Below are positions 1-60,069 of a stretch of 64,000 nucleotides of DNA, piece after piece. The DNA comes from Spirochaetia bacterium. Its GTDB lineage: Bacteria; Spirochaetota; Spirochaetia; SZUA-6; Bin103. The translations under genes and the position numbers were made by a program. The stretch covers positions 96,001 to 160,000 of the forward strand of contig CBDAOI010000004.1 in assembly GCA_965198005.1 (NCBI GenBank), written 5' to 3'. Below the pieces are notes generated by a model that was not told the origin of the DNA, searched no databases, and saw nothing but the letters and a program-made list of their open reading frames with translations. Position 1 is the first letter of the stretch, and every line of letters begins with the position of its first letter.

Positions 1-3000
1 CTGAAAGACTCTGAAACGGAAAGACAGCCAGTTTGTGCGAGAATACCACCCTCAGAGGGAGGAACGTAAAGACAACCCTGTTGCTGACGATTGAACACAC
101 GATTACCTGATCCAGTCCCTCGATCGTGGAATATAGCGCGGGCTGTCTGTCACCAAACTGCCACCATCGGACTCGCCGGACTTGCCTGTTTACCTTCATT
201 CGCCCGGGCTTCACGCGACGTGCCACAATCGCCATGAGATCGGGCCAGCGTCGCCGGCACTCCTCCTCGCTTCGCCCGCCGAAGTTGATCACGTAGCGGT
301 GGTGGGTATGGGTGGGGCTGGTGTTGACCTCCTCGCCGCCGATGTAGGGGAAGATGACCTCGCAGTTGCGCGGGTCGGATTCGATGAGCCGCTGCATTTC
401 GGCGAGTGAGGACGCAACGCCTTTCCGGTCGGTGTCGTCGAAGGTGAAGCCCATGCCGAGGACGATGCTGCCCTGGAAGCTCTTGCCGGCGTTGGCCGCC
501 AGCCGTACCGGGTCCGCGTGGCCGCCCCGGTGGAACAGGAACGCGGTGATATTGTCGACGCTCGCGCCGTCGAGCGCCTTGTGGCCGCGAAACGGACCCT
601 TGGCGACGTGGAGAACACTTACGATGACGGCCGCTTCGCCGGGCCACTGGACCCGCTTGGTAGCGCGGTAGATCTCGCCACCGTGCTCGCAGATCCAGCG
701 TAAACCGCTGGAGCGGGTATCGCCCTGGGCGATGGTGTTGGTGGCGATCAGGCCGAATGTGCCACCATCGCGAACCAAGTTGAACGCACGCCGGTAGAAG
801 TGCGCCACGAGGTCGGCATTGCCGTGGCTCTCCTCATGCATCTCCTTGAGCCAACTCGGGTAGGCGACAATGTTGCCGGCCGCGACGTTGTTCTTGCCCG
901 CGAACGGCGGGTTGCCGACGAAGCCGTCGAAGCCGGGGTTGTCGCGCTCGAATGCCTCGGGGAACTCGATTTCCCAGTGGAACGGAGCGAACGGCAGCTC
1001 CGCGTTGCGGCGCCCGTCCATCTCCACCGCGTGACGCCACGCCTCTCCGGTGAGGATCGCCTCCTGGTAGGCGGAGCGCCGTGACTCCCGCTCCTTTGGC
1101 TTGGCGCCCTCGAAGAATGCGGCGAGCACGAGATCGCCGAACAGGCGCACTTCGCCGACTGCGTCCTGAGCTTCGCGCCAGAGGTTCTGCAAGCGGCGTT
1201 CATCGACGGTGTCGTCGGCTTCACGGATCTGCCGCCGCAACTCCGATGCCGCTTCCACGGCTTCGCGCACGCCGAAGCCAGTGAGGATCGGCTGCCCAGC
1301 CTTCCAGTTCAGCGATTCGATCTGCTGACGGGTCAGCCCGACGAGCGAGTCGCCGTGACGGAACGCATGGTCGACGAAGGTGAGCGGATGGTCGCGCGCG
1401 AGCGTGCTGAGCCAGAGCGAGACCTTGGCGAGGTCAACGGCCATGGGGTTGCGGTCGATGCCGTAGAGGCACTTCTGAGCGACGAGCCGACGGGCGAAGA
1501 TCACCTCGTCTTCATCGGGTGGAATGTCCGGCATGGAGCCGTGAGCGCCCCACGCGTCGATCAGAGCGTCGGCGAGCTGGCGACAGGTCTCGACCAGGAA
1601 TGCGCCGGAGCCCATTGCCGGATCGCAGATCTTGAGGTCCAGGATTTGCTCCGGGGTCGGCGCCCGGCCGTCCTCGCCTTTCAGCCGATCGAGCAGGGGT
1701 GCGAGGGTGTGACGAACAATCGGCTCGGTCAGTTCGCGCGGCGTGTAATGGGAGCCGGAGCGCCGTCGTTCCTCGTTGGGTTGCAGTACCAGAGCGCCAG
1801 GCGGGGCGATGTCGGGCGTCGCGTCCTTGTCCAGAACGCGGTCCAGCGCCACGTGCAGATCGACCACCGTCTCCGCTTCCCGGAGCCCCTTCGCAACCCT
1901 GTCCGTGATGGTGCGGCCCGCGCGCTCCTGAAACCACCGCCTGCGGCTGGCGCTCGGCTGAGCCAGCAGCGTGTCAAGATCGATTGTGTTCGGTGCTCCG
2001 AGCTTCTTTGCCGGCTTGATGGCAACCGAGCGGCCGGTGGCGGTCTCCAGGCGAAAGCCCATGATGGTCTCGTACACGGAGCCGATCTGCTCCACGTCGA
2101 GCGTGCGGTACGAGATGCGCTCGCCGTCGAGCACAAGCAGCTTCTCCAGCACCCGGTAGATGACGCCGTCGGAGATGCGCGGCGGCACAACGCGCTCAAT
2201 CGTCTGCCGGGCACCGCCGCCGCTACGGCCTTCAAGGAATCGGAAGCGATCGGGGTCGAACAGAGCGCCGCGGCGCTCCGGAAGGCTTACGGCGCCGCCG
2301 GTGCGATGGGCGCGTGACCCATCGTGGATGAGGCGAAACAGCACGAGAAGCTGCGCCCAGGCACCGAAGCGCTGGTCCATGGTGTCCGGGTTGAGCGCCG
2401 CATCCTCGCGCAAGCGCTGGTAGAGGCCGGTGAGCGAGTAGTAGCGCGCGAAGTTCTCATCGTCCGGCAGCATGCCACGTTCCTCGGCGTAGAGCAAAAA
2501 GACCAGGCGCAGGATGACGGAGAGCAGGCCGCGGTAGATGTCGTTGCGGTCGCCGTCCTCGGACAGCGGCTCGCCCAGGAGCTCGCCCCCGGAGGAGTCG
2601 TGAGCGGTTTGGAAGCCGCGGAGGAGTTCGTACAGGGCATGGAGCACTTGCTCCGAGAGGCGCTCGGAGACCTCGTTCTGGTACTTGCGGCTGCTTTCGA
2701 GCAGCGCGGCGAGCCGCTGATCGCGGGGCAGTGCCAGCAGCCGCTGTTCGGATAGCAGCAGGCGCAGCGCCGAGCAGAGCGGGCGCCCGGCGGTGTTGAT
2801 CAGGTCCGCGAAGCGGAAGTCCATCCAGCCGGAGCTCTCGCCTCGGGGGGCAGAGATCAAGCGTAGCGCGACGCCGTTGAACAGCACACCGGCGGGGACC
2901 CCGGTGCCGCGCAGAAGGCGCTCCACTCGGCCCTGGGGAGATGCCTCCAGTCCGCCGGCGCCGGACGTCGCCTTGTCGAAGTCTTGTCCGACGGCGAGCA

Positions 3001-3400
3001 CCTGCACGAGCAGTTGCCACGGCGATGTGCCATTCCGAGGGTCACGTTCACGAATTGCGAAGTCCGGGTGCAGCGTCTCGTCGTAGTCCGGGAGAACGAC
3101 CGCCAGATCGGCCGGGACGGGAGACTCTGCCGTGCCCGCGTAGCCCCTGGACGAGAAGCCCCAGCCGAGGACCGCGCTCGCGAACTCTTGGAAGTCTCCC
3201 ACGCACGGCCCGGGATCGCGTCCTGGGAAGACCGTCGGTTGGTGGACGCACCCGGCGAGCAGCGCCTGCCCCTCCGCATCCTGACGGTTCAGGATCGCAC
3301 CCGCCTTGACCAGCGCCGGAGCCGAGACCACCAATCCGTTCGGTTGGATGAAACCCAGCCACTCGAGGTGGGCGCGTGTGTTCGGGTCTTGCGCGGGCAT
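1..3400 (-). CDS. drmMI: Large N6-adenine DNA methyltransferase, DISARM DrmMI / Eco57I-like (partial, 3' end beyond window start)
   Basis: Not in ORF track; manual translation from ATG 3400: MPAQDPNTRAHLEWLGFIQPNGLVVSAPAL; in-frame motif I LKICDPAMGSGAFLV (~1590-1635) and motif IV GFVGNPPF (~902-925); frame still open at position 1. Not every codon between motifs was checked. Confidence 0.82.
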   Translation of the reverse strand, partial: MPAQDPNTRAHLEWLGFIQPNGLVVSAPALVKAGAILNRQDAEGQALLAGCVHQPTVFPGRDPGPCVGDFQEFASAVLGWGFSSRGYAGTAESPVPADLAVVLPDYDETLHPDFAIRERDPRNGTSPWQLLVQVLAVGQDFDKATSGAGGLEASPQGRVERLLRGTGVPAGVLFNGVALRLISAPRGESSGWMDFRFADLINTAGRPLCSALRLLLSEQRLLALPRDQRLAALLESSRKYQNEVSERLSEQVLHALYELLRGFQTAHDSSGGELLGEPLSEDGDRNDIYRGLLSVILRLVFLLYAEERGMLPDDENFARYYSLTGLYQRLREDAALNPDTMDQRFGAWAQLLVLFRLIHDGSRAHRTGGAVSLPERRGALFDPDRFRFLEGRSGGGARQTIERVVPPRISDGVIYRVLEKLLVLDGERISYRTLDVEQIGSVYETIMGFRLETATGRSVAIKPAKKLGAPNTIDLDTLLAQPSASRRRWFQERAGRTITDRVAKGLREAETVVDLHVALDRVLDKDATPDIAPPGALVLQPNEERRRSGSHYTPRELTEPIVRHTLAPLLDRLKGEDGRAPTPEQILDLKICDPAMGSGAFLVETCRQLADALIDAWGAHGSMPDIPPDEDEVIFARRLVAQKCLYGIDRNPMAVDLAKVSLWLSTLARDHPLTFVDHAFRHGDSLVGLTRQQIESLNWKAGQPILTGFGVREAVEAASELRRQIREADDTVDERRLQNLWREAQDAVGEVRLFGDLVLAAFFEGAKPKERESRRSAYQEAILTGEAWRHAVEMDGRRNAELPFAPFHWEIEFPEAFERDNPGFDGFVGNPPFAGKNNVAAGNIVAYPSWLKEMHEESHGNADLVAHFYRRAFNLVRDGGTFGLIATNTIAQGDTRSSGLRWICEHGGEIYRATKRVQWPGEAAVIVSVLHVAKGPFRGHKALDGASVDNITAFLFHRGGHADPVRLAANAGKSFQGSIVLGMGFTFDDTDRKGVASSLAEMQRLIESDPRNCEVIFPYIGGEEVNTSPTHTHHRYVINFGGRSEEECRRRWPDLMAIVARRVKPGRMKVNRQVRRVRWWQFGDRQPALYSTIEGLDQVIVCSIVSNRVVFTFLPLRVVFSHKLAVFPFQSLS

Positions 3401-3402
3401 CG

Positions 3403-3876
3403 TCAGCCTTGTGGCACCCGACAGAGATCGCGAGCCGCAAGGAGACCCCGATGCGCATCCGTGACGTTGGCGTTCCTGGCCGTCGTGTAGATCTTGCCGC
3501 GCGGTCTCGCGACGATCTCCGGATTCCCGAAGTCATCGATCAGTGCCGCGTCGTTGGTGTAGAGCAGACGCGCCCCACTCACCAGCGCGAGCGCAAGCAC
3601 ATGCAGGTCGTCGGACTTGCACACCCCCTTCCCGAGGAGGCCTGCGGCATGATCGTCCACTACTTCGTCAGTCACTGAGCGAGCGCGTCCATTTCTGAGG
3701 GCGCTCCTGAGCCACTGGAAGAATCGCCGGTCCCGGGCCAGCTCCTCTCGAAGTTGACCGCCGACCACCAACTGTCCGCGTGGGCTCGACAGCCAATCAA
3801 AGAATCGTCTGCCAGCCGGAGGGCGGTCGCTTCCAAATACTTCGTATGCCACGTTGGCATCGACGATGGCGCACAT
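3403..3876 (-). CDS. PIN-domain protein (copy 2)
   Basis: MCAIVDANV start, SDDLHVLALA and LLYTND motifs give the PIN acidic residue pattern; abuts upstream ATPase. Confidence 0.75.
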   Translation of the reverse strand: MCAIVDANVAYEVFGSDRPPAGRRFFDWLSSPRGQLVVGGQLREELARDRRFFQWLRSALRNGRARSVTDEVVDDHAAGLLGKGVCKSDDLHVLALALVSGARLLYTNDAALIDDFGNPEIVARPRGKIYTTARNANVTDAHRGLLAARDLCRVPQG

Positions 3877-5229
3877 TTACAGTCCGATCGACCGCCTCGT
3901 TTCTTCCATGAAGAACTGACCATAGCCGTCCGGTGCATCCCACAGGTTGCCTTGTTCATCGAATCTCAAGGAATGGATATGAACGTCAAGATCGGCCCTT
4001 TCGAAGAACAAGATGGAAACATCCTCCGGCTTCAGACCCGTCTCACGGTCGCGGATGTCCATGCGAACACGATCGACGATGTAGTCGCTGTGTGTTTCGA
4101 CAATAAGCTGGCGACCTGACGCGGCGCTCGTGCAGAACAGGCTTCCAAGAGCCGCCTGGGCGCTGGGATGGAGGTGCACTTCAGGCTGCTGCAGAAGGAA
4201 TCGCGGGTATCCGTCCTCAATGAGTAGCTCCAGCAACAGGGGCAGCACTTGGCTAACGCCATATCCCACGTCGATCAGGTTGTGCTTTGCACCCTTGCGT
4301 TTGCCGTGCTTGCCCCACTTTCGCATCTCCAATTGAAACGGTTCATATTCATGCTTGCCAAGCCGTTTGACAAATATCTCGTTAAACAGACCTGACTTGT
4401 GCCCGAATTGTTCGATCCGCTGCTTCAACTCGTGCCACTGCTCCGAGTCTCGAGCGTGAGCATCCGCGAGGAATGCCGGCACCGAGCTTCCCTCCGGATC
4501 GCGCACGATCCTCACCGGATCGTACGTGCGGAGCGGGCTGGATCGGGTGGGTCCTCCCGCAAACGCACTTGCACTGAACAAAGCACCCTCTTCATAGAGT
4601 TTGGCGAAGTCGTGATAATCGCTCTCGGTGAGGATCGCGTCAGTATCTCCCGTCAGCGGCTGCAGCTCACCCGCCGTGCCGCTCTCCGCAGCGACGCGTA
4701 GGAACTGCGCCATCGTAGACGCTCCTCCGCCGTAGATGTAGTTGTCGTTGGGTCCGCGCCCCAAAGCGGGCAGCCGCCAAGAACCGCTCGCGCAACCCAG
4801 TTCGGTGCGAGGGTTCGAATCGCGGCGTTGGTCTCTGATCCACACACCTGCGGCGCTCCACACTACGGTGGCAAGGGCGGGGGAAGCGCCCTTGCCGAGG
4901 GTAAACGTCGCGTCAAATTCGACGGACTCAACCGAGTTTCCCGAACACTCGAAGCCAATGCTGAACGATTCGGCGCCTGCACGGCGGCTATCTTGTGCGT
5001 GATGGGCGATCTCATGGAACGATCCGAGATCGTACGGCGCACTGCGAAAGTCGGGGTCCTTGTGGTAACTTGCGACTTCGAGAATCGCCTTTACCGCGGC
5101 GAGAAAAGAGGTCTTACCGGTGCTGTTGTCGCCGAGCAGCAACGTCAGCGGCGCCAAGCGAGCCGCCTGCTGCTCGCGAAAGCAACGAAAGTCACGGAGT
5201 CTGAGTTCCTGTAGCGGTTGGTGGTCCAT
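3877..5229 (-). CDS. ABC/AAA_21-like ATPase (copy 2)
   Basis: Walker A GDNSTGKTS, signature-like NLIDVGYGVSQ, LLQQPEVHLHP, H-loop IVETHSD; ATG 5229 with GGAG RBS (GTG 5247 alternative). Confidence 0.85.
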   Translation of the reverse strand: MDHQPLQELRLRDFRCFREQQAARLAPLTLLLGDNSTGKTSFLAAVKAILEVASYHKDPDFRSAPYDLGSFHEIAHHAQDSRRAGAESFSIGFECSGNSVESVEFDATFTLGKGASPALATVVWSAAGVWIRDQRRDSNPRTELGCASGSWRLPALGRGPNDNYIYGGGASTMAQFLRVAAESGTAGELQPLTGDTDAILTESDYHDFAKLYEEGALFSASAFAGGPTRSSPLRTYDPVRIVRDPEGSSVPAFLADAHARDSEQWHELKQRIEQFGHKSGLFNEIFVKRLGKHEYEPFQLEMRKWGKHGKRKGAKHNLIDVGYGVSQVLPLLLELLIEDGYPRFLLQQPEVHLHPSAQAALGSLFCTSAASGRQLIVETHSDYIVDRVRMDIRDRETGLKPEDVSILFFERADLDVHIHSLRFDEQGNLWDAPDGYGQFFMEETRRSIGL

Positions 5230-5243
5230 CGGTGCTCCCGTGG

Positions 5244-5720
5244 TCACCCCGCCCTGGGTCCGATACAGAGGTCCGCGTCAAGCAGCTTCCGGTGTTCAGC
5301 CGTGAAGTGGCCATCGGGTCGCGACGTGTAGATCCGGCCCGCTACACCTGGAATGACTGCGGGGTCCGCAAAGTCACGCTGCAAACGGCCGTCATCCGTA
5401 TAGAGAAGGCGAGCACCGCTCGCCAAGGCAAGCGCTATGATGTGCACATCGTTGGACTGAAGATTGCGGGATTGGCCGAGTTCGTCCTCGTATCGACGGA
5501 TTCGGGCACCACCAATCTGTCGCACGCGGCCGCTCACACGCCGTGCTTCCAGCAGCCAGCGTCCGAAATTGCGATTGTGTGTGAGTTCCTCCGAGACTCT
5601 CCCACCGACAACAAGCTGTCCACGCCCATCATCCAACCAGTTCCGAAAACGAATACCCGCCGCGGTTCGCTTTCGGCCGAATACTTCGAACGCGACGCTC
5701 GCATCGACGATGGCGCACAT
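5244..5720 (-). CDS. PIN-domain protein (copy 1)
   Basis: Paralog of 3403-3876: MCAIVDASV...SNDVHIIALA...LLYTDD; start overlaps ATPase stop. Confidence 0.75.
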   Translation of the reverse strand: MCAIVDASVAFEVFGRKRTAAGIRFRNWLDDGRGQLVVGGRVSEELTHNRNFGRWLLEARRVSGRVRQIGGARIRRYEDELGQSRNLQSNDVHIIALALASGARLLYTDDGRLQRDFADPAVIPGVAGRIYTSRPDGHFTAEHRKLLDADLCIGPRAG

Positions 5721-7066
5721 CAGTAATCGATTACTCGCTTCAGTTCGTCCCGGAAGAATCGTCGGTATCCGTCCGGTGCATCGAGCACGTTGCCTTCGTC
5801 ATCAATGCGAATTGAGTGGATCGTGACGGACAGGTCATCCCGTTCGAAATAGAGGATCGATACGTCGTCCGGCTCCAGATCGGATCGTTTGTCGCGAATG
5901 TCGAGCAGGATGCGGTCAAGAATGTAGTCGCTATGCGTTTCGACGATCAGTTGACAGTGGGACCCCGCCGAGGCACAGAACAGGCTGCCGAGTTCGGCCT
6001 GCGCGCTTGGATGCAGGTGTACCTCCGGCTGCTGCAGCAGGAACATTGACGCTCGGTCGTGCCGGAATAGCTCCACGAGCAGTGGCAGAATCTGACTGAC
6101 GCCGTAGCCTACGTCGATCAGATTGCGTCTTGCGCCTTTGCACGTCTTGCCCCGCTTGCGTACTTCCAACTGGAACGGCTCGAACTCGTGCCGGCCAAGT
6201 CGCTTCACGAACACATCGTCGAACAGTCCAGACTTGTGGCCAAACTTCTCCAGATCACTCTTCATGTCCTGCCACGCATCGGGATTCCTGGCATGCACGT
6301 TCGCCAGGAACGCTGGAGTCGAGACCCCCTGCGGATCTTGCACCAGCCGTACCGGATCGTACGTGCGCAGCGGACTGGACCGAATCGGCGCCCCGGCAAG
6401 AGCTCCCGATGCGAACCTGTTGTTCTCAACAAACAGAGCGATCAATTCGACGACGTCACGCTCCGTGGGCACCAAGTCAACATCGCCGTGCAGCGGCTGC
6501 AGCTTTCCCGGCATGCCGCTCTCCACCGCAACCCCCAGGAGTAAGTTGACCTTGGCGGTGTCTCCGCCGTAGAGATAGCGACGATCGCGATCCGGGACCG
6601 GCGGCAGACGCCATGAGCCGCTGGCGCATCCCAGGTCGGTGTAGGATCCTTCTGTGTCGCGATGCTCTCGCACCCACACGTCTGCGGCGCTCCAGCGTAC
6701 GGTCGAGAGCTTCGGAGCGGCGCCGTCACCCAGCGTGAAGGTGGCGTCCACGGCGACTGGTTCGCCCTTCTCCCCAGCGTACCTGAAACCTATACCGAAC
6801 GATTCGGCTCCGCCACGACTGCCGGTTGGATCCTGGCGATATGCAATCTCGTGAAAAGAGCCGAGGTCATAGGGCGGGGCACGGAAGTCGGGGTCTTCGT
6901 GGTAGCTACCGACCTCCAGCATCGCCCGTACCGCGGCCAGAAACGACGTCTTTCCGGTGCTGTTTTCGCCGATCAGCAGCGTCAGCGGCGCCAGGCGCGC
7001 AGTCTGCTGTTCTCGAAAGCAGCGGAAGTCGCGCAGTCTGAGCTCCTGCAGCGGTGGCTGATTCAT
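5720..7066 (-). CDS. ABC/AAA_21-like ATPase (copy 1)
   Basis: GENSTGKTS, NLIDVGYGVSQ, LLQQPEVHLHP, IVETHSD; ATG 7066 (MNQPPLQELRL) with GAGGA RBS. Confidence 0.85.
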   Translation of the reverse strand: MNQPPLQELRLRDFRCFREQQTARLAPLTLLIGENSTGKTSFLAAVRAMLEVGSYHEDPDFRAPPYDLGSFHEIAYRQDPTGSRGGAESFGIGFRYAGEKGEPVAVDATFTLGDGAAPKLSTVRWSAADVWVREHRDTEGSYTDLGCASGSWRLPPVPDRDRRYLYGGDTAKVNLLLGVAVESGMPGKLQPLHGDVDLVPTERDVVELIALFVENNRFASGALAGAPIRSSPLRTYDPVRLVQDPQGVSTPAFLANVHARNPDAWQDMKSDLEKFGHKSGLFDDVFVKRLGRHEFEPFQLEVRKRGKTCKGARRNLIDVGYGVSQILPLLVELFRHDRASMFLLQQPEVHLHPSAQAELGSLFCASAGSHCQLIVETHSDYILDRILLDIRDKRSDLEPDDVSILYFERDDLSVTIHSIRIDDEGNVLDAPDGYRRFFRDELKRVIDY

Positions 7067-7076
7067 CCGATCCTCG

Positions 7077-10000
7077 TCATCCCGTGTCCGGCCAAAGATA
7101 CACCAGACCAACCGGCTCCACGCGCCGAGCCCGCACTTCGTAGAACTGGCGAATTCGGGGTGGCTCGGTTTCGAGGTCGCGGTCGAACTGGGTTAGGCGC
7201 CGGCGCCACGCGGCGACGTCGGCCTGTCGCTGGCGTTTCTCTTCGTCGTTGAACTCAAGGGAGAGCTGGACTTGGGCAGCCTCGTGCTTGCCGAGCTCCG
7301 CTTCGACGCGCTGGCGCTGGCGTTCCAGGGTGACGCGGAGCTGTTGAGCCTCACTCTCGCCTCGATCGCGCAGGGCGTCGGCCGCGCTTCGGGCGACCTG
7401 ATCGGCTCGCTCTTCGAGCTGCGGCAGCAGGTCGGTGATGTCCTGCGCGCCAGTTTCAAGCAGACGGCGGTGAACGGTCTCACTCGGGGCGTGCGCATCT
7501 CGCAGCGCGGACTCCAGGCGTTGGAGGGTCCGCGCTTCGGCCTCCCCGGCGTACGCTTTGAGCGGCCCCACGCGTCGCGACGGCTCGATCCAGCGCGCGG
7601 CGACCGGCGTCAGGATCTCGTGCAGGCGTTCGGCACGGCGGCCGTACAGGCACAGCCGGCCCAACAGGATCACCCGCGGGATCGAGTCGGCCGCCTGTAC
7701 CAGGCAGGCGCGGGACAGGTCGTGGTGGACGAAACCCTGGGCTCGGAAACGGGCCAGCAGGCGCTGCGCCATCCGCTGCTCCAGGTGCAGGTGCACCGTG
7801 GCGTCGGTGAGCACGCCGGCGTCCTCGAAGACGACCGGGCGGATGGGCGCTTCGCGCCGCCACTCGGCCAGTTTCTGGTTGCTCCTGCGTGGCACGCGCA
7901 GCGTATCCAGGGTACTGGTCCAGCTCGCGTCGGCCAGCGTCTGGCCGGTGAGCGGCGGGAACATCCACACCGGGGAGCCATCGTCGGCACGCTCTCCCTG
8001 CAACGGTTCGGCGCCCAGCAGCTCCAGCGAGCAGGACATCGCGTCACGGAACGGTTCCGGCTCGAAGTCCACCCAGCGGCGCGACCGATCCAGCAGCCCC
8101 CGGCAGCGCTCGATCTGATCCTTCAGATCCTCCTGCCGTTCGCGTGCCGCTTCGAGCTCCTCGGTGGCAACGCGCTTCTTCTCCTGGTCCAGGTCGGCCG
8201 CTTCGATCTCACGTGCAAGCCGTGTCGCCTCCCGGTGACGGATGCCACCGCGCAGTCGGCGCTCGATGTCGTCGTCGATCACCTTGGAGAGGCTGCCGAG
8301 CTCGCGCTTGATGGTCTGGGTCTTCCTGACCAGCACTTCCAGCACGCGGTCCTCGGCGCGTTGCGGGAGCGCGAAGTAGTGGCAGCGTACCTCCGGCGCC
8401 GGTTGCAGCTTGCGGTCGATGCGCCCGTTGCGCTGCTCGATCCGGCCGGGGTTCCAGGGCAGGTCGAAGTGGAACAGGTCGGTGCAGTGCGCCTGGAAGT
8501 TCAGCCCCTCGCGGGCGGCGTCGGTGGCGATCAGGATGCGCAGCGGATCGTCCGCCGGGGCCGCGTTGAAGCGGCGCTGGATCTCCCTGCGGTTGGCGCC
8601 CGCGGTCTGGCCGTCGATGGTTTCGATCCGCTCGTCGGCGAGGTCGGTGCCGGCTATGGCCTGCCCCAGCATCTCGCGCAGGTAGCGCTTGGTGCCGATC
8701 ACGTTCTCGGTGAAGATCAGCACCCGCCCGTCGTTCCAGCGGGGACGGTCGGGACACAGGTGGTCGTCGATCCAGTGGATCAGCTTGCGGGTCTTCGCGT
8801 CAGGCCGGCCGCGCGCGGCGGAGGCCACCTCCTCCATCCGGTCGAGCAGGTCCTGTTCGGTGTGCCACAGCGCCTCGGCATCCGGAGTCCGGCCCGATGC
8901 GCTCTCGGCTGCGGCGTTGATGGCGGCGATCTGGGTTGCCTCTTCCGCCGCGTTCTCCTCGTCCGTGCGCTCCGCGCGATCGTCGTCGGCGTCGGGGGGC
9001 GTGGCGAACCGGGATGCGGCCTTGGACGCGAACGCATCGCTGCCGGCGGCCGGGACCTGGCCCTCACCGGCCGCGAAGCGCTCCCACTGCTCGCGGGCCG
9101 TCTTGCGATGCCGCGCCAGAGAAATGGCGAACGCCTCGATCGACGACAGCAGCTTCTGTTGCAGCCCCACCACGAGCAGTCCGGCCGCGGCGCGGGTGCG
9201 CGCGGGTACGTCTTGGAACCGGGTCTCCCGCACGTGGCGGTACTCGTCGAGCAGCCGCGACAGCACGAGCTCCGGCGCATCCTCCGGCAACCCGTCGATC
9301 ACTACCCGGCACACCTCGCGTTTCGGGAAACCGCCCTGTACTTCGCGGATGTCCTCCTTGAGGCGGCGGACCATGACGTCTTCCAGAGCGCTCTTGCCGC
9401 GCACCGGCACTCCGCGCGTGAAGCGGTAGGGGTCGAGCAGCTCGAGCAGGGTGGCGAAGCTGTTGGAGTGGCCGTTGTGAGGTGTGGCGGACAGGAACAG
9501 GCGGTGCTCGAAGCGGCCGCCGAGCTCGCGGATGGCGCGCGTGAACTTGGTCTCGATGCCGTAGCGTCCGCCGCTGGACGGCGCCGCGTGGTGGGCTTCG
9601 TCCAGAATCAGCAGGCTGCCCGGCGCCAGGTCGCCGAGCCACTCCCGCATCGGGTCCGCGTAAGCCGAGTCGATGAGCAGATTGTGCGACACGATGAAGC
9701 GGCTGTGGGTGCGCCACGGATTGACGCCGAAGCCCCGGTCGCGGCGCACCTGCGCCAGGTAGGCGCGGTCGAGAATCACGAACAGAAGCCCGAAGCGTTC
9801 CTCCATCTCCGCCTTCCATTGCTCCATTACGGAAGCGGGGGCTGCGACCACCACCGTCCGCGCTCGCTTGCGCAGCAGCAACTCGCGGGCGATCAGGCCG
9901 GCTTCGATGGTCTTGCCGAGGCCGGTGTCGTCGGCGATGAACAGGTTGACGCGCGGCAGGCGCAGCGCCTTGCGCAACGGCTCCATCTGGTAGGCGTCGA

Positions 10001-10349
10001 GCTTGATGCCGGCGCGGAAGGGCGATTGGAACAGGTTAGGATCGGTGCCGGTGATGCAGTTCCAGCGCAGCGTGTGCAGGAACGCGCTGAAGTGGCGCGG
10101 CGGGTCGAAGCCCTTGGCGCCGAGGTCGGACCACGCTTCCTGCTCCAGGATGGCGCGGTCGATCTCGAAGTCCCAGTACACTTCCAGGGTCTGGCCCTGG
10201 GCATCGTCGTCGGCGCAGGCCAGGCTCACGCGCGCGCACTCGCGTGGCGGCGTCTCCACGGCTTCCACCAGCCAGCGCCGCGAACGCACCTCGACCAGCT
10301 CGCCGAGGTGCGGAGGCCGGTTGGGGAGCAGTCTCATCGGGCGGGCCAC
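7077..10349 (-). CDS. drmD: SNF2-like helicase, DISARM DrmD-like
   Basis: RVNLFIADDTGLGKT, ILDEAHH, LSATPHNG, ATDAAREGLN, WNPGRIEQRNGRIDR; 1090 aa; upstream of DrmMI-like MTase. Confidence 0.85.
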   Translation of the reverse strand: MARPMRLLPNRPPHLGELVEVRSRRWLVEAVETPPRECARVSLACADDDAQGQTLEVYWDFEIDRAILEQEAWSDLGAKGFDPPRHFSAFLHTLRWNCITGTDPNLFQSPFRAGIKLDAYQMEPLRKALRLPRVNLFIADDTGLGKTIEAGLIARELLLRKRARTVVVAAPASVMEQWKAEMEERFGLLFVILDRAYLAQVRRDRGFGVNPWRTHSRFIVSHNLLIDSAYADPMREWLGDLAPGSLLILDEAHHAAPSSGGRYGIETKFTRAIRELGGRFEHRLFLSATPHNGHSNSFATLLELLDPYRFTRGVPVRGKSALEDVMVRRLKEDIREVQGGFPKREVCRVVIDGLPEDAPELVLSRLLDEYRHVRETRFQDVPARTRAAAGLLVVGLQQKLLSSIEAFAISLARHRKTAREQWERFAAGEGQVPAAGSDAFASKAASRFATPPDADDDRAERTDEENAAEEATQIAAINAAAESASGRTPDAEALWHTEQDLLDRMEEVASAARGRPDAKTRKLIHWIDDHLCPDRPRWNDGRVLIFTENVIGTKRYLREMLGQAIAGTDLADERIETIDGQTAGANRREIQRRFNAAPADDPLRILIATDAAREGLNFQAHCTDLFHFDLPWNPGRIEQRNGRIDRKLQPAPEVRCHYFALPQRAEDRVLEVLVRKTQTIKRELGSLSKVIDDDIERRLRGGIRHREATRLAREIEAADLDQEKKRVATEELEAARERQEDLKDQIERCRGLLDRSRRWVDFEPEPFRDAMSCSLELLGAEPLQGERADDGSPVWMFPPLTGQTLADASWTSTLDTLRVPRRSNQKLAEWRREAPIRPVVFEDAGVLTDATVHLHLEQRMAQRLLARFRAQGFVHHDLSRACLVQAADSIPRVILLGRLCLYGRRAERLHEILTPVAARWIEPSRRVGPLKAYAGEAEARTLQRLESALRDAHAPSETVHRRLLETGAQDITDLLPQLEERADQVARSAADALRDRGESEAQQLRVTLERQRQRVEAELGKHEAAQVQLSLEFNDEEKRQRQADVAAWRRRLTQFDRDLETEPPRIRQFYEVRARRVEPVGLVYLWPDTG

Positions 10350-14276: not shown

Positions 14277-15155
14277 ATGGCCAGCCCGATGCTCGCACCC
14301 GCCAAGGTTCACTACCCCTCATCCGACGGCCGGCCGATGGCGGAAAGCGACTTCCAACGCACCCCGCTGACCTACGCCGTCGACCGGCTGCGGTTCCACT
14401 TTCGCGACCGCCGGGACGTGTACGTCTCGGGCAACCTGCTGCTCTACTACCAGGAGGGGAATCCGCGGGCGGTGGTGGCGCCCGACGTGTTCGTGGTGCT
14501 GGGCGTATCCAACGCCGACCGCTCCAGCTACCGGCTGTGGAAGGAGCGCAAGGTGCCTGACTTCGTGCTGGAGATTACCTCGCGCTCGACGTACCGCGAG
14601 GACCAGGGGAGCAAGCGCGAGGTGTACCGTGCGCTGGGGGTGCGGGAGTACTGGCAGTACGACCCGACCGGCGACTACCTGGAGCCGCCGCTGCAGGGCC
14701 TGGAGTTGAGCGCGGGGGAGTATCGGCGGCTGCCGGGGCGGGAGTTGGCGGACGGAGCGCTGGCGCTGGCAAGCGGCGTGCTGGGGCTGGAGTTGCGGGT
14801 GACGGCGCGCGGGCTGCGGTTCCACGATCCGGCGACCGGGCAGGACCTGCCGAACCTTGCGGAAACCGACGAGGCGCGGCAGCGCGAGCGGCAGGCGCGG
14901 CAGCGCGAGCAGCAGGCGCGGCAAGCGGCGGAGACGCGCCTCGCGCAGGAAACGGCAGCCCGCCAGCAGGAAACGGCAGCCCGCCAGCAGGAAGTGGCAG
15001 CCCGCCAGCAGGAAGTGGCGGCCCGCCAGCAGGAAGCGGCAGCCCGCGCAGCCGCGGAAGCGCGGGTGGCCGAGTTGGAGGCCTTGTTGCGCCGGGAGCG
15101 GGGCCGCGAGTCCGGTCAGGACGGCAATCCACCGGCGCCTCGTCAGGGTCGGTAG
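14277..15155 (+). CDS. Uma2/DUF820 endonuclease-like protein (copy 2)
   Basis: Near-identical to copy 1; 292 aa. Confidence 0.9.
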   Translation: MASPMLAPAKVHYPSSDGRPMAESDFQRTPLTYAVDRLRFHFRDRRDVYVSGNLLLYYQEGNPRAVVAPDVFVVLGVSNADRSSYRLWKERKVPDFVLEITSRSTYREDQGSKREVYRALGVREYWQYDPTGDYLEPPLQGLELSAGEYRRLPGRELADGALALASGVLGLELRVTARGLRFHDPATGQDLPNLAETDEARQRERQARQREQQARQAAETRLAQETAARQQETAARQQEVAARQQEVAARQQEAAARAAAEARVAELEALLRRERGRESGQDGNPPAPRQGR

Positions 15156-16042: not shown

Positions 16043-17845
16043 ATGAAGATATTTTTTGCATGGACCTTCGCGGTTGCGTTGGTCCTCGTCCTGACCGCAA
16101 CCGGCCTGTGGGCCGCTGGCGCAGAGGAAGAGGCACCGGCAGCCGCTGCCGACAAGCAGTATGTGACCGACCCCACCACCGGCAAGGTGGTGGTGGCGCC
16201 ACAGTACGGCGGGATATTAACCGCCGGTCATACTCAGGGCGGTAGTACTGGGGCTCCTAATGACCCCTATTTCGGCAATCCGTGGGGCCCAGGGGCGGTC
16301 GTCAATGAGAGGCTTGGTATCGGGAACTGGGGAATAGATAGAGACGTATTTGACTTTAGTAGTAGTTATCTACCTGTATCTATCTTAACAGGGCGGCTGG
16401 CGGAAAGCTGGGATATTTCCCCGGACGGCCTCACCTATACCTTCAACATCCGCCAGGGCGTTCGGTGGCATAACAAGGCGCCGATGAATGGTCGGGAGCT
16501 GACTGCCGATGATGTCGAATGGAACTTTCACCGTTATCTGGGTCTGGGCGACTTCACCGAAGCCGGACCTAGCACCTGGGGTGGCGCTGCCAACTTCATC
16601 TCCATACCATTCGAATCGGTAACGGCCACCGACAAATGGACGGTTGTGACGAAGCTGAAGGAGCCACACCTCGCTGCGCTGGAGATTATCCTCAACGACT
16701 CTGCTGTTGCCATATTGCCCCCCGAGGTAATCGAGCAACATGGCGAGTATCAGGATTGGAGGATCCTGGTCGGCACCGGACCCTTTATGGTGACTGATGT
16801 AGTCGACGAGAGCAGCATCACCTGGACCAAGAATCCTGACTACTGGGGCTATGACGAAAAGTACCCGCAGAACCGCTTGCCCTACGTTGACCAGTTAAGG
16901 CGACTGGTTATTCCAGAGGAAGGAACAATGATGGCGGCACTACGCTCAGGCAAGCTTGATTTCAGAATGTATGCCCCTTCAGATATCGACTCGATAGAGA
17001 GCCTGCAGCGGACCAACCCCGAAATCGCGGCGCACCCGATCTATTTTCGGTCGAGTGATTCTTTTGCTCCTAACCATCGCGTGCCGCCCTTTGACGACAT
17101 CAACGTGCGCCGCGCCCTGCAGATGGCGCTGGACAACGAGACCGTTGCGGTTACGTACTGGAAGGGTTGGGCAGATCCGACACCTCACGGGCTGGTAAGG
17201 TTGAAAGGGTATTACATCCCCTTCGAGGAATGGGACGAAGAGGTCAAGCAATACTACCGGTATGACCCGGAAGCTGCCGAGAAGCTCCTTGATGAGGCTG
17301 GGTATCCGCGCGGCGCGGACGGCATTAGATTCAAGACCGCCCTGAATTACGGGACTTTTGCAAGCTTAGACTTTGCAGAAATAGCTGCCTCCTACTGGGC
17401 TGAGATTGGCGTCGATGTTGAGATTGATGTATTTACCAGCGCCGAACATTGGGAGAGGGTACTCTCGCGTACTTATGAAGGCATGCACAGTACCATTGCG
17501 GGCGCCGGTTATGCCCCTCTCCTGATGGCAAGCTGGTATCACTCGGATGGGGGGGCTCACAACCGCGGCGGATCCCAGTGGCCTGAGATGGACGCCATGA
17601 TTGACGCCGTCCGAGCCGCTACTACCAATGAGGAGCTTCAGAGGCTGATGAAAGAGCTGGATATGTACGCAATAGAGAACCACTGGCTGATATGGACTCC
17701 TAAAACTCCATTTTTTCATTATGCCCAGCCGTGGGTCATAGGCTATAGCGGTGAATTTCCAAATGCTTTGGGCCAGTCAGAAACCTATACCGTCTTTGCC
17801 CGCCTCTGGATTGATAGTGAGCTGAAGGAGGCAATGGGTTATTAG
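16043..17845 (+). CDS. ABC transporter solute-binding protein, family 5 (SBP1, intact)
   Basis: Signal peptide, LAESWDISPDGLTYTFNIRQGV, VGTGPF, PFDDINVRRAL, YDPEAAEKLLDEAGY. Confidence 0.93.
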   Translation: MKIFFAWTFAVALVLVLTATGLWAAGAEEEAPAAAADKQYVTDPTTGKVVVAPQYGGILTAGHTQGGSTGAPNDPYFGNPWGPGAVVNERLGIGNWGIDRDVFDFSSSYLPVSILTGRLAESWDISPDGLTYTFNIRQGVRWHNKAPMNGRELTADDVEWNFHRYLGLGDFTEAGPSTWGGAANFISIPFESVTATDKWTVVTKLKEPHLAALEIILNDSAVAILPPEVIEQHGEYQDWRILVGTGPFMVTDVVDESSITWTKNPDYWGYDEKYPQNRLPYVDQLRRLVIPEEGTMMAALRSGKLDFRMYAPSDIDSIESLQRTNPEIAAHPIYFRSSDSFAPNHRVPPFDDINVRRALQMALDNETVAVTYWKGWADPTPHGLVRLKGYYIPFEEWDEEVKQYYRYDPEAAEKLLDEAGYPRGADGIRFKTALNYGTFASLDFAEIAASYWAEIGVDVEIDVFTSAEHWERVLSRTYEGMHSTIAGAGYAPLLMASWYHSDGGAHNRGGSQWPEMDAMIDAVRAATTNEELQRLMKELDMYAIENHWLIWTPKTPFFHYAQPWVIGYSGEFPNALGQSETYTVFARLWIDSELKEAMGY

Positions 17846-17854
17846 AGAAAGAAA

Positions 17855-17898
17855 GGGAGCTGGGAGGCTGTCGCCTGCAGGCGCGCTTCCCAGCTCCC
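17855..17898 (+). terminator. Intercistronic hairpin after SBP (also ~25194, ~32992, ~51513)
   Basis: GGGAGCTGGGA...TCCCAGCTCCC; no U-tract, so possibly an mRNA-stabilising stem instead of a terminator. Confidence 0.5.
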
Positions 17899-17928
17899 AA
17901 CGAGATTGCCACGCCCCCATGATGTGAC

Positions 17929-18936
17929 ATGAGAGCCTATCTCATCAGGAGATTGTTGCTCATAATCCCCACCTTGTTTATCTTGAGCATCCTGGTCTTT
18001 CTCTCGGTCCGCTTCATCCCCGGCGATGTAATAGACACAATGGCGGCGAGGATGGCAGAGACGGGGGCGCTGGCATTCAATATTGACCGTGAAGCTCTCG
18101 AGCATATGCTGGGATTGGACGTGCCTGTCTACGTGCAGTATGGACGCTGGACAGGGGTGTTGCCAACCCCTGACTTTGTTACCAAGCAGTCTCACTTCAA
18201 CGGTCTCCTCCAGGGCAGCCTTGGTGAATCACTGATGAGCTCTTTTACGGTAGAGGAGAAGATAAGAGGTAGATTGCCAGTAACCATTCAGCTTGGTGTC
18301 ATGGCAATCGTGATTGGGCTCCTGATAGCGCTGCCGGTCGGCATCTACTCGGCGATTCGCCAGGATACCGCCGCCGACTACCTGGGGCGCTCGATCGCCA
18401 TCCTCGGCCTGGCAACTCCCAACTTCTGGCTGGGACTTATGGTCGTGCTCTACCCCGCCATCTGGTGGGGCTGGTCGCCGCCGATGGAGCTGATTCCCTT
18501 TGCCGAAGACCCGCTGGGGAATCTCGGGATGTTCCTCATTCCCAGCTTGATTCTGGGGACGGCCTCGGCTGCCGCCGCCATGCGGATGACGCGCACCATG
18601 ATGCTGGAGGTGCTCAGGCAGGACTATATCAGGACCGCCTGGGCCAAGGGTCTCAGGGAGCGGGTGGTCGTCATGCGGCATGCCATCAAGAATGCACTCA
18701 TCCCGGTAGTTACCCTGATAGGCCTGCAGTTGCCGATCCTGATAGGTGGCTCGGTCATCATGGAGAACATATTCAACCTGCCGGGGTTGGGTCGTCTCAT
18801 GGTGGTTGCGCTGAAAGATCGAGACTACCCGGTGGTCTCCGGGGTCAATCTGTTTTTCGCCACCGCGGTGGTGCTGTTCAATCTCCTGATAGACCTGCTC
18901 TATTCCTTTCTGGACCCGAGGGTGCGGCATGACTGA
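17929..18936 (+). CDS. ABC permease, OppB/DppB-like
   Basis: RFIPGD, ATPNFWL, QDYIRTAWAKGL, IMENIFNLPGLG, LDPRVR. Confidence 0.93.
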   Translation: MRAYLIRRLLLIIPTLFILSILVFLSVRFIPGDVIDTMAARMAETGALAFNIDREALEHMLGLDVPVYVQYGRWTGVLPTPDFVTKQSHFNGLLQGSLGESLMSSFTVEEKIRGRLPVTIQLGVMAIVIGLLIALPVGIYSAIRQDTAADYLGRSIAILGLATPNFWLGLMVVLYPAIWWGWSPPMELIPFAEDPLGNLGMFLIPSLILGTASAAAAMRMTRTMMLEVLRQDYIRTAWAKGLRERVVVMRHAIKNALIPVVTLIGLQLPILIGGSVIMENIFNLPGLGRLMVVALKDRDYPVVSGVNLFFATAVVLFNLLIDLLYSFLDPRVRHD

Positions 18937-19825
18937 CGCGCGCGGGCCGTTTGCCGATTTCTTCGGCAGGTTGTGGCGGCAGAAGCCGCTGGGGATCGCC
19001 AGCGGGGTCGTCATCCTGATCCTGATTCTGTTGGCGATCTTTGCCGATGCTCTGGCCCCCTATCCTTTCGATAAACTGAACCTGGCAGACCGGCTGCAGG
19101 GCCCGTCGGCCCGCCATCTGCTGGGGACTGACCAGTTGGGCCGCGACCTGTTGAGCCGTCTGCTGTTCGGGGCGCGCATCTCGCTGGTCGTCGGTCTGGC
19201 GGCGACCACGTTGAACGTGGTGGTCGCCACCCTGATCGGCGGCACGTCCGGATTCATTGGGGGCAAGCTGGACCTGGCGGTGCAGCGCTTTGTCGATGCC
19301 TGGATGGCGTTCCCGGGACTGCTGCTGTTGCTCACGATCATGTCGGTCGCGGGGCAGGGTCTGCCACAGATCATCGTGGTGCTGGGGATCGCCGGCGGGG
19401 TGGGCGGCTCGCGCGTGGTCAGAGGCGCGGTGGTGGCCACCAAGGGGAACGATTTCTTTCTGGCTGCCCGGGCGGTGGGCGCGCCGACGCGCCAAGTCCT
19501 GGTGCGCCATGTCCTGCCCAACATCGTGGCGCCGCTGATCATCGTCTTCAGCATCAACGTCGGCGGTGTCATCCTGGCCGAGGCCAGCTTGAGCTTTCTC
19601 GGCTTCGGGTTACCCATCAAGGTCCCCAGTTGGGGCGGCATGCTGAGCCGGGAAGGGCGGCGGTTCATGGAGCAGGCGCCGTGGCTGGCGCTGTGGCCCG
19701 GGCTGTGCCTGACGATCGTGGTGTACAGTTTCAACATGTTGGGTGATGCCATGCGGGACTTGCTCGACCCTAGGCTCAGGGGTGGTGGCGGTCGTCTGGC
19801 TGCCGGCGGCGCCGCGTCGGTCTAA
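18929..19825 (+). CDS. ABC permease, OppC/DppC-like
   Basis: HLLGTDQLGRDLLSR, RHVLPNI, EASLSFLGFG, PSWGGML, GDAMRDLLDPR. Confidence 0.93.
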   Translation: MTDARGPFADFFGRLWRQKPLGIASGVVILILILLAIFADALAPYPFDKLNLADRLQGPSARHLLGTDQLGRDLLSRLLFGARISLVVGLAATTLNVVVATLIGGTSGFIGGKLDLAVQRFVDAWMAFPGLLLLLTIMSVAGQGLPQIIVVLGIAGGVGGSRVVRGAVVATKGNDFFLAARAVGAPTRQVLVRHVLPNIVAPLIIVFSINVGGVILAEASLSFLGFGLPIKVPSWGGMLSREGRRFMEQAPWLALWPGLCLTIVVYSFNMLGDAMRDLLDPRLRGGGGRLAAGGAASV

Positions 19826-19987: not shown

Positions 19988-20761
19988 CTACAGGCTCAGG
20001 CCGCCGTCGACCATGAACACGCCGCCGGTGCAGTGGGCGGCTTCGTCGCTGCACAGGAACAGCATCATGCGCGCCACCTCTTCCGGTTCGCCGTAGCGCC
20101 CGTCCAGGGAGCGCCGTTCCAACTGGTGCTTGATCTCCTCGCCCCGGCCCGGTATCCGCATGTCCTCGATCGAGCGCATCATGCGGGTCTCGGTGGGGCC
20201 GGGATTGACCGTGTTCACGCGGATGCCGTGCGGTCCGCCTTCCATGGCCGCGCAGCGCATCAGGCCGATCACTGCGTGCTTGCTGGTGTGGTAGGCGGAC
20301 ATGCCGGTGGTGCCCATCACCCCGGCGGTCGAGGAGGTGATGACGATGCTGCCGCCGCGTTCGCGCATCGCCCGCATCACGTACTTGAGACCCAGCCACA
20401 CGCCGCGCACGTTGACCGCCATCACGCGGTCGAAGGTGTCCAGGTCGTACTCGGTGATCGGCGCCACGTCGCCTTCGATGCCGGCGTTGTTGAGAAACAG
20501 GTCCACCGTGCCGTAGCGCTCGACTGCGGTGGCCACGTACGCCTCCGTCTGCGCCGGGTCGGTGACGTCGGCCACCGCGTAGCTGGCGGCGGCGCCGATC
20601 GAGGAAGCGACCTGCTGCAGGGCGGTCTGGTCCAGATCGACCAGCAGCACGCGCGCGCCTTCCGCCGCGAACAGCGCCCCGGCCGCGCGGCCGATGCCGC
20701 CGGTGCCCCCGGTTATGATCGCCACCTTGCCTTCAAGTCGTGCCATTCCGTGTGCCTCCAA
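19988..20761 (-). CDS. SDR family oxidoreductase 2 (intact)
   Basis: TGGTGGIG, NNAGIEG, YHTSK, VDGG. Confidence 0.92.
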   Translation of the reverse strand: MEAHGMARLEGKVAIITGGTGGIGRAAGALFAAEGARVLLVDLDQTALQQVASSIGAAASYAVADVTDPAQTEAYVATAVERYGTVDLFLNNAGIEGDVAPITEYDLDTFDRVMAVNVRGVWLGLKYVMRAMRERGGSIVITSSTAGVMGTTGMSAYHTSKHAVIGLMRCAAMEGGPHGIRVNTVNPGPTETRMMRSIEDMRIPGRGEEIKHQLERRSLDGRYGEPEEVARMMLFLCSDEAAHCTGGVFMVDGGLSL

Positions 20762-25184: not shown

Positions 25185-25267
25185 AGAAAGAAAGGGAGCT
25201 GGGAGGCTGTCGCCTGCAGGCGCGCTTCCCAGCTCCCAACGAGATTGCCACGCCCCCATGATGTGAC

Positions 25268-27225: not shown

Positions 27226-27700
27226 AGCAAGGCGGTGCCGCCCTTAAGGACCCACTTGCCTCTCAGCGAAGGGTGGGAGTTCAGGACGTTCAGGAGATGC
27301 ACCAGATGGAGGACCTTCTCGACCGCACCCTCGTCGAATCCGTCGGGTCTGGATAGGGGCAGGATTTCCGCCGTGGAGAATCTCACAGCACCTCCCCCCA
27401 GGACCGACTCAGGATTTCGGCCGGGATCATGAGGTTCCAGCCTTTGACCCACTGGCAGCCTTTGCGCCTGCCCCGCGTCAGATAGTGGGGCTGCTGCGGG
27501 CGGAGCTCGCGCAGCGCATCGAGATGCGCTTCTTCCACCGTCAACGGCTCCCGGTACTGCTCGAGGAAGAACCCCACCTTTGCGGCGGTGGTCGCATTCT
27601 CCAGCAGGCGGGTGTACTCGATGACCTGATCCAGGATGAAGAACTCCACCGACTCCAAAGAGCGCCATATCTCCTCCCAGCTACCGGTCAGGTCGGGGCG
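27226..27700 (-). pseudogene. AbiEi 3' part plus AbiEii 5' part (type IV TA remnant)
   Basis: Near-identical to ~35128-35600; AbiEii ends at LKGGTAL. Confidence 0.85.
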
Positions 27701-32982: not shown

Positions 32983-33065
32983 AGAAAAAAGGGGAGCTGG
33001 GAGGCTGTCGCCTGCAGGCGCGCTTCCCAGCTCCCAACGAGATTGCCACGCCCCCATAATGTGAC

Positions 33066-46811: not shown

Positions 46812-46888
46812 AGGGTGTCGCCCTCGCTCGACGAGAGTGCGCTCGCTCGCGAGCGTTGCGAGGGGCCGGCAGTGGAATCAGTGCTCTC
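46812..46888 (+). promoter_or_regulatory. Structured leader type B before SBP4
   Basis: AGGG/CCCT, GAGAGTGC...GTGCTCTC; homologous to 58067-58151. Confidence 0.55.
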
Positions 46889-46916
46889 AAACGATTATTT
46901 TTGGAGGTCTATCTCT

Positions 46917-51492: not shown

Positions 51493-51590
51493 GGGCTGAG
51501 CTCAGGGAAAAAGGGAGCTGGGGGGTTCAGGCTTCCCAGCTTCCACACTTACGGCAGCGTTATGTCCGCAAGCGCAATAAGGTGCGCCAC

Positions 51591-59995: not shown

Positions 59996-60069
59996 TAGAT
60001 AGATCTGTTGGAGCTCATGAATCCCACCTACTCAGCGCCGGCTGGGTGGGTGGGCTCTCATTCGCTCAC

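Follow-up and report, generated by a model that had tools for sequence, protein, structure and literature searches.

Two tandem ABC ATPase-PIN gene pairs between DrmD-like and DrmMI-like genes of a Spirochaetia bacterium: a probable anti-phage cassette related to HEC-03 and Menshen

We analyzed a 64,000-nucleotide (nt) stretch from a Spirochaetia bacterium (assembly GCA_965198005.1, contig CBDAOI010000004.1, forward-strand positions 96,001 to 160,000; hereafter the window), in which two tandem gene pairs, each encoding an ATP-binding cassette (ABC)-type ATPase and a small PIN-domain protein, lie between a helicase gene and a methyltransferase gene. According to the open reading frame (ORF) list and translations, these four minus-strand genes fill positions 3403-7066 exactly. 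In the direction of transcription they are ATPase-2 (5720..7066; 448 amino acids [aa] from the ATG at 7066), PIN-2 (5244..5720; 158 aa), ATPase-1 (3877..5229; 450 aa from the ATG at 5229), and PIN-1 (3403..3876; 157 aa). They belong to a packed minus-strand row in the first 10.3 kb of the window that begins with a citrate synthase gene (12018-10369, assigned by Pfam), which ends 19 nt upstream of a DrmD-like gene on the same strand. The latter (7077..10349, minus strand), the upstream flank of the cassettes, encodes an SNF2 helicase of 1090 aa that matches PADLOC DrmD over its full length (1.8e-302) and Pfam SNF2-rel_dom, Helicase_C, and ResIII. The row closes with a DrmMI-like N6-adenine methyltransferase gene (2..3400, minus strand), of which the N-terminal 1133 aa are present before the window edge cuts it; it matches PADLOC DrmMI (E = 0), REase_MTase_IIG (5.5e-143), and Pfam Eco57I, MmeI_Mtase, and N6_Mtase. 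The PADLOC matches make the identities of both flanking genes unambiguous.

The junctions between these genes are tight. The DrmD stop lies 10 nt from the ATPase-2 ATG, which is preceded by GAGGA; the ATPase-2 stop and the PIN-2 ATG overlap by 1 nt (TGATG); the PIN-2 stop is followed after 14 nt by the ATPase-1 ATG, preceded by GGGAG, with an alternative GTG start at 5247 that overlaps the PIN-2 stop; the ATPase-1 TAA directly abuts the PIN-1 ATG; and 2 nt separate the PIN-1 stop from the DrmMI ATG. The two ATPases share 285 of 451 positions (63%) and the two PIN proteins 75 of 157 (48%), and judged by these identities the two pairs are diverged paralogues. An earlier note on this DNA had described two diverged ATPase-PIN pairs, with abutting or overlapping stops and starts, between drmD-like and drmMI-like genes. 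The ORFs, translations, Pfam, and PADLOC bore this out, coordinates included, as did the TGATG overlap and the TAA-ATG abutment.

Both ATPases matched the same families. The Pfam matches were AAA_15 (1.3e-19), AAA_21 (4.5e-17), and DUF3696 (1.4e-6, residues 413-448 of the 463-aa ORF) for ATPase-2 and AAA_15 (1.5e-16), AAA_21 (3.8e-16), and DUF3696 (5.9e-4, under the curated cut-off) for ATPase-1; an NCBIfam scan returned only N-terminal P-loop matches. Among the PADLOC models, the Menshen ATPase NsnB was the best for ATPase-2 (2.4e-44, in two stretches) and for ATPase-1 (6.2e-44, end to end). PDC-M55A came second (2.1e-33 and about 1e-33, respectively) and HEC-03B third (6.2e-26 and 5.9e-23), the HEC-03B model covering only the C-terminal ~170 residues of either protein. 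Matches to AriA (1e-19 to 1e-21), GajA, and PtuA were far weaker, and a comparison with PDB sequences matched the ATPase to OLD 6p74 at 6e-11. An AlphaFold2 (AF2) model of ATPase-2 (pLDDT, 84.9) found Rad50, SMC, and PtuA heads as its best Foldseek matches (E ~1e-12), and we therefore classify the protein as an ABC-type ATPase.

The nucleotide-binding motifs are strongly conserved. The Walker A motif (G-E/D-N-S-T-G-K-T-S; GENSTGKTS at residues 33-41 of ATPase-2, 6944..6970, minus strand) has G33 and N35-K39 in 79/79 family ATPases, and T40 and S41 in 78/79. The Walker B block LLQQPEVHLHP (residues 343-353; 6008..6040, minus strand) hardly varies, and all 79 ATPases have its QQPE core. This core aligns with EEPE in OLD 6p74 and with DQIE in PtuA 9nnb, so that Q-Q stands where these relatives carry acidic residues.

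PIN-2 matched Pfam PF01850 over the curated cut-off (3e-7), and PIN-1 fell under it (5.5e-4; 21.0 bits versus a cut-off of 23.6). We examined an alignment of 33 PIN homologues (A1) and, as a second set, 67 PIN proteins from related loci. The four canonical acidic residues are kept almost without exception in the latter (D6, 66/67; E45, 67/67; D91, 66/67; D110, 67/67), D116 is likewise kept, and PIN-1 aligns with the same invariant acidic residues. The AF2 model of PIN-2 (pLDDT, 91.4) found AF1683 and VapC PIN proteins as its best Foldseek matches (probability, 0.99-1.0; template modeling [TM] score, 0.5-0.6). Fold model and acidic residues together place the pair among stand-alone PIN-domain nucleases, and the PIN protein of the cassettes looks active. 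Other searches gave little: PIN-2 had no match among PDB chains at E ≤ 10, NCBIfam offered nothing useful (VapC at E = 0.07), and the PADLOC models matched neither window PIN even at E = 10, nor the PIN proteins of relatives embedded in Hma systems. As a separate observation, C2, H93, and C152 of PIN-2 are nearly invariant and H143 occurs in 60/67, so that these four residues could form a metal or structural site.

The PIN family is large. A profile search of 1.84 billion representatives, clustered at 50% identity, yielded 1,851 proteins at E ≤ 1e-3, 1,262 at 1e-10, and 194 at 1e-30. The best 150 of the 1851 are nearly all stand-alone proteins of 103-205 aa. A search among longer proteins gave two ATPase-PIN fusions and no PIN fused to a further effector, evidence that the search tool itself ranks as weak; the two fusions (P0125 and P0126) are singletons and count for little because changes in their linker residues hint at frameshifts.

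A pattern search with A1 in a genome collection confirmed 440 loci, of which we kept the best 80 (numbered with the prefix L below); they are the most similar loci, not a random sample. All 80 come from metagenome-assembled genomes of environmental samples and many phyla. In a tblastn search with the window proteins, all 80 loci (80/80) showed a homologue of the ATPases immediately upstream of their PIN gene, counting ATPases that are partial at contig ends (L013, L028, and L078) and matches that are shortened (L056 and L067). Linkage this consistent argues that the pairing is not due to chance. Measured in 63 pairs, the distance between the two genes runs from -1 to +21 nt; in 22 of these pairs it is -1 nt, and in 30 it is 0-3 nt. 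Tandem pairs recur in L026, L032, and L078, and L003 has two ATPases with one PIN. When plasmids were searched with the ATPase, nothing closer than distant DUF3696 proteins (≤34% identity) appeared. One of them, encoded on the Rhodococcus aetherivorans conjugative plasmid NZ_CP069307.1 (L081:4989-6880), is 27.6% identical to ATPase-2 and is joined by a 4-nt overlap to a 169-aa protein that starts with MSRVIDTNV and has acidic residues in PIN-like spacing by eye. This small protein had no Pfam match and reached an hhalign probability of 0.5 against A1; it is a lead only, according to which the ATPase-plus-small-PIN arrangement may extend beyond the PIN family of the window.

The ATPases appear to be modular. 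Among 67 of them, the middle part (residues 96-225; 6392..6781, minus strand, in ATPase-2) is hypervariable, with a mean pairwise identity of 21% versus 57-72% in the other segments, and the two window ATPases are 48% identical there and 76% in the N-terminus. The C-terminal tail (residues 396-448, including DUF3696; 5723..5881, minus strand, in ATPase-2) behaves otherwise: these last 53 residues follow the type of the PIN protein in 8/8 DrmD/DrmMI loci with a clearly typed PIN. Where the PIN is of the PIN-1 type (5/5 loci), the tail is 77-85% identical to that of ATPase-1 versus 57-62% to that of ATPase-2; where it is of the PIN-2 type (3/3 loci), the tail is 81-98% identical to that of ATPase-2 versus 57-62% to that of ATPase-1. 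Six loci with a PIN of neither clear type have a tail nearer to ATPase-2.

Two loci carry hybrid ATPases. Up to about residue 256, those of L007 and L012 are 78-100% and 59-94% identical to ATPase-2, respectively, and their likeness to ATPase-2 extends to about residue 320; from residue 353 they are 75-94% identical to ATPase-1, and a PIN-1-type PIN follows. PIN-1 itself shares 85-89% identity with its counterparts in L007, L008, and L012. The crossover falls around the invariant Walker B block, and recombination between both ATPase genes of a window-like array would be expected to yield such hybrids. In phylogenies built with FastTree (branch support not inspected), the window PINs lie in separate clades and both window ATPases in one, a mismatch that indicates an exchange of parts and not a recent duplication of the pairs. 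Together, hybrids and tandem pairs suggest that the last ~95 residues of the ATPase are a PIN-specific docking part and that the middle insert is a variable sensor.

Each ATPase-PIN pair is, in our judgment, probably an autonomous two-gene anti-phage module of the sensor-ATPase/PIN-RNase kind, acting by abortive infection or growth arrest. The ATPase would oligomerize and hold the VapC-like PIN through its C-terminal DUF3696 tail, and a phage cue would be sensed by the hypervariable middle insert. An ATP-dependent rearrangement would then free or activate the PIN, which would cut RNA, stop translation, and thereby be toxic to the cell. The tandem cassettes, which differ in their sensor inserts and in their matched tail/PIN pairs, would probably work side by side on different triggers without cross-talk. 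The earlier note had also read the pairs as a two-gene defense system with a sensor ATPase and a nuclease effector, which fits the family matches, the folds, and the conserved linkage; of the two things it proposed to look for in a survey of gene neighborhoods, the ATPase-PIN linkage held at 80/80 loci and an enrichment in defense islands was not established.

Several results weigh against this reading. The first concerns that enrichment: 47 of the 58 related loci outside helicase-methylase systems (see below) have no PADLOC match in either nearest neighbor, and no background rate was available for comparison. The second is the replacement of the Walker B acidic pair by Q-Q in 79/79 ATPases. 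An ABC ATPase that lacks the Walker B acid or the catalytic glutamate tends to bind ATP without hydrolyzing it fast; the ATPases here may accordingly hydrolyze ATP slowly or not at all, which makes the ATP-driven step uncertain. In addition, the Foldseek E-values of the PIN model are weak (2e-3 at best, with TM scores of ~0.5), and a tblastn search of PIN-2 against a plasmid and a phage collection gave no match. Since no PADLOC model matched the PINs, membership in HEC-03 or PDC-M55 is not shown either. Finally, across the 67 pairs, the identity of the tail correlates with that of the PIN no better than other segments do (Spearman coefficient, 0.53 versus 0.50-0.58). We rejected this global correlation as a pointer to the tail because it does not single the tail out; only in a multiple regression of the 67 pairs do tail and middle stand out (0.34 each). 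A prediction of the 1:1 complex of ATPase-2 and PIN-2 (alignments A2 and A1) scored 0.00 without controls and speaks neither for nor against binding.

The genomic contexts of the related loci bear on whether the cassette serves the genes around it. It lies between DrmD and DrmMI homologues in 13/80 loci (L001-L003, L005-L010, L012, L014, L017, and L018) and between HmaB-like and HmaC-like genes in 7/80 (L026, L032, L043, L047, L056, L073, and L077), with two probable further Hma cases, namely L080, which has the HmaB-like gene only, and L078, a short contig of the L026 type. The Hma calls rest on PADLOC matches of representatives (HmaB, 4e-115; HmaC, 9e-93; HmaA in L077, 1e-171) and, for the others, on blastp clustering. 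Thus 20-22 of the 80 loci lie within helicase-methylase systems, and in the window the cassettes share one transcription unit with DrmD and DrmMI, with gaps of 10 and 2 nt. Both observations would suit a guard of the helicase-methylase system, in which the ATPase would monitor DrmD/DrmMI or phage inhibitors and free the PIN once this layer no longer works, in the way known of PrrC and EcoprrI; PrrC and PARIS are discussed as precedents for embedded back-up systems in a preprint (10.1101/2024.01.29.577857). We nevertheless regard this role, which the earlier note had raised, as unlikely. The other 58/80 loci are neither between DrmD and DrmMI nor in Hma, their recurrent neighbor clusters being mostly metabolic or housekeeping genes, and when the nearest ORF on each side of these loci (111 proteins) was compared with PADLOC at 1e-12, a match was found in 11 loci. 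The function therefore cannot depend on DrmD/DrmMI, and an autonomous cassette fits the distribution better than a dedicated DISARM guard. Moreover, Hma-embedded copies occur in several separate places of the FastTree phylogenies (branch support not inspected), and the same cassette type serves two unrelated methylase families. The position between DrmD and DrmMI would then be an instance of the known embedding of small defense cassettes, offering shared transcription and not being required for function.

The same scatter of a lone two-gene unit across unrelated contexts would also be expected of a toxin-antitoxin or addiction module, with the PIN as a VapC-like toxin and the ATPase as a large antitoxin that stabilizes the island or itself, with no sensing of phage. 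VapC toxins are among the best structural matches of the PIN model, which shares their conserved acidic active-site residues; the genes are tightly coupled and translationally linked; and selfish modules typically accumulate in tandem. This explanation carries, in our view, a small probability. The gene directly upstream of the PIN encodes a large ABC ATPase of 448-450 aa and not a small DNA-binding VapB-like antitoxin, and membership in type II VapBC was rejected for this reason. The ATPase belongs among the sensor ATPases of tested defense systems (NsnB, HEC-03, AriA, and PtuA), a hypervariable insert is expected of a sensor under arms-race selection and not of an antitoxin, and the failure to find PIN-2 in the plasmid and phage collections tells against an addiction module as well.

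It is very improbable that the PIN is a noncatalytic adaptor or nucleic acid-binding subunit whose true effector lies elsewhere, for example in DrmD/DrmMI, as proposed for the N-terminal part of NsnC on the grounds that the DUF3696-bound PIN-like domain of Menshen is reported to be catalytically dead (PMC12065111), because here the four canonical acidic residues and D116 are kept in 66-67/67 PINs, the protein has no domain beyond its 157-158 aa (as in nearly all of the best 150 of 1851 relatives), and most loci have no other nuclease nearby.

Of the named systems, HEC-03 is the closest in organization. The preprint of Payne et al. (2024; 10.1101/2024.01.29.577857) describes it as a pair of an ABC ATPase and a VapC-like PIN, embedded in Hma, that protects against phage and needs both genes. 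The window pair shares this two-gene composition, as judged by Pfam, PADLOC, predicted folds, and linkage in 80/80 loci, as well as the embedding in a helicase-methylase system, and relatives of the window cassette sit in Hma itself, between HmaB and HmaC. It differs from HEC-03 in that the window copy lies between DrmD and DrmMI and not in Hma, and in that the HEC-03B model is only the third-best and a partial match to the ATPases, with no match to the PINs at E ≤ 10, so that a match of both proteins was not obtained. We set the window family apart from HEC-03 and PDC-M55 by profile models and by description, not by direct sequence comparison. The earlier statement that the pairing is not a recognized named system did not survive this comparison, since HEC-03 had already been described and the ATPase is NsnB-like as in Menshen. 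A check with PADLOC, which had been suggested together with that statement, gave matches for the ATPases (NsnB best, then PDC-M55A and HEC-03B) and none for the PINs at E ≤ 10.

Menshen is the closest in sequence. In its description (PMC12065111), NsnB is an ABC ATPase with DUF3696, AlphaFold 3 models, which show a 4:2 assembly, place the DUF3696 tail of NsnB on the N-terminal PIN-like domain of NsnC, this domain is without catalytic residues and occurs fused to a variety of nucleases, NsnA (ParB-DUF262) presumably acts as the sensor, NsnB has E-N as its Walker B pair, and the system is often linked to methylase-based systems. The window ATPases have the same build, an ABC ATPase with a C-terminal DUF3696, and NsnB is their best PADLOC match; their partner has a PIN fold, and the DUF3696-on-PIN models of NsnB-NsnC agree with the tail/PIN co-variation seen here. 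Against these likenesses stand several differences from Menshen as so described. The partner is a stand-alone PIN of 157-158 aa that keeps D-E-D-D, in contrast to the inactive PIN plus C-terminal nuclease of NsnC, and the Walker B pair is Q-Q and not E-N. The window operon has no NsnA/DUF262 match, its neighbors being DrmD-like and DrmMI-like, and the annotated neighbors of the related loci gave no NsnA/DUF262 match either, no screen aimed at it having been made there.

PARIS (AriA/AriB), Septu (PtuA/PtuB), and Gabija (GajA/GajB) share the logic of an ABC-ATPase sensor with a nuclease effector; the matches to them are weak and partial, limited to the Walker A and Walker B/H-loop blocks, and the effector here is a PIN and not a TOPRIM, an HNH, or a UvrD-like helicase. 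We rejected membership in PARIS or Septu because the PIN partner has no TOPRIM (AriB) or HNH (PtuB) match. By these comparisons, the window pair is assigned neither to HEC-03 nor to Menshen; its nearest relatives are HEC-03 and the NsnB-NsnC pair of Menshen. The most likely identification is a phage-defense cassette of an already described kind, from a sequence family not yet catalogued; both the kind of system and its embedding are known, HEC-03 having been described as an ABC ATPase plus PIN embedded in Hma.

A further reading that would join these comparisons with the hybrids is possible, and we offer it tentatively. The window pair may be a minimal, NsnA-less relative of Menshen in which the DUF3696-docked PIN is still an active nuclease, a state from which the dead-PIN adaptor and fused effectors of Menshen could have evolved. 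Each cassette would combine two exchangeable parts: a sensor part, made of the N-terminal ATPase and the insert, and an effector part, in which the PIN joins the final ~95 residues of the ATPase. Tandem arrays would be recombination substrates at the Walker B block that yield new sensor-effector combinations as in L007 and L012, and with Q-Q in its Walker B the ATPase would be a switch that binds ATP and not a motor.

The surrounding genes had been called a DISARM-like operon in the earlier note, and this holds for DrmD and DrmMI by PADLOC. The core genes of class 1 DISARM are DrmA, DrmB (DUF1998), and DrmC (PLD); they are not visible in the window because its edge falls within DrmMI. Across the 13 relatives of the DrmD/DrmMI type, DrmA, DrmB, DrmC, DUF1998, and PLD had no match in the ±10 kb flanks examined (17 ORFs, part of a set of 32 proteins, compared with PADLOC and 52 with Pfam, recurrent clusters represented by one member each), and the genes after DrmMI are on the other strand in L003 and L012. 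"DISARM-like" therefore stands for a DrmD-DrmMI helicase-methylase pair here, a complete DISARM not being shown.

Several DrmD/DrmMI loci carry Dsr2 (E = 0) and a HEC-01A ATPase after DrmMI, and these adjoining genes indicate that the site collects several embedded systems. The Dsr2-like SIR2 protein and the HEC-01A-type ATPase are encoded after DrmMI in L001 (14529-20087), L005, L008, and L017, the E = 0 match to Dsr2 being that of L017. Between the two genes in L001, a 194-aa ORF aligns with the C-terminal portion of the DrmMI models (3e-47), as though the 3′ end of drmMI had been duplicated when Dsr2 inserted. Upstream of DrmD, a divergent gene for an AbiEi-family antitoxin-like protein (PADLOC AbiEi, 7e-92) is present in L005 (4405-5226), L007, L008, and L017; the citrate synthase gene takes its position in the window. 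Among the Hma loci, L073 (15340-20411) and L043 (14419-20279) have Hma, the cassette, and HEC-01 pairs adjoining Cas12c-like (PADLOC E = 0) and Cas1-like genes, and by these matches both are dense defense islands. An ATPase with AAA_14 and DUF4143 is encoded in the window at 38564-39718 (minus strand), and the same family (PADLOC PDC-S01) occurs directly upstream of the cassette in L041 and L061 and nearby in L050.

Elsewhere in the window, ABC transporter genes of the oligopeptide type form at least six paralogous cassettes, each with an SBP_bac_5 binding protein and one or two BPD_transp_1 permeases. They lie on the plus strand within 16043-61957, at 16043-19825, 23377-27164, 31191-34073, 46815-48755 (binding protein only), 50534-53490, and 58181-61957. 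In the second, two ORFs that overlap (23377-24543 and 24450-25184) make up the binding protein, apparently because of a frameshift, and in the fifth the binding protein is truncated to 226 aa. A Uma2-family (PF05685) gene occurs twice (14277-15155 and 29531-30367), as does a short-chain dehydrogenase gene (19988-20761 and 27688-28422). The near-identical Pfam match coordinates of these doubled genes suggest a segmental duplication that included transporter genes.

The locus reveals no new principle. What it adds is an uncatalogued sequence family, with about 1,850 representatives at 50% identity, to the class of ABC-ATPase plus PIN defense systems, a family whose PIN half the PADLOC v2 models would miss and through which HEC-03-type pairs are linked to Menshen. 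The DrmD/DrmMI site proves, like Hma, to collect embedded cassettes, namely the ATPase-PIN pair, Dsr2, and HEC-01. The two orthogonal tandem pairs, together with the hybrid ATPases, amount to natural swap experiments on the docking part and the sensor.

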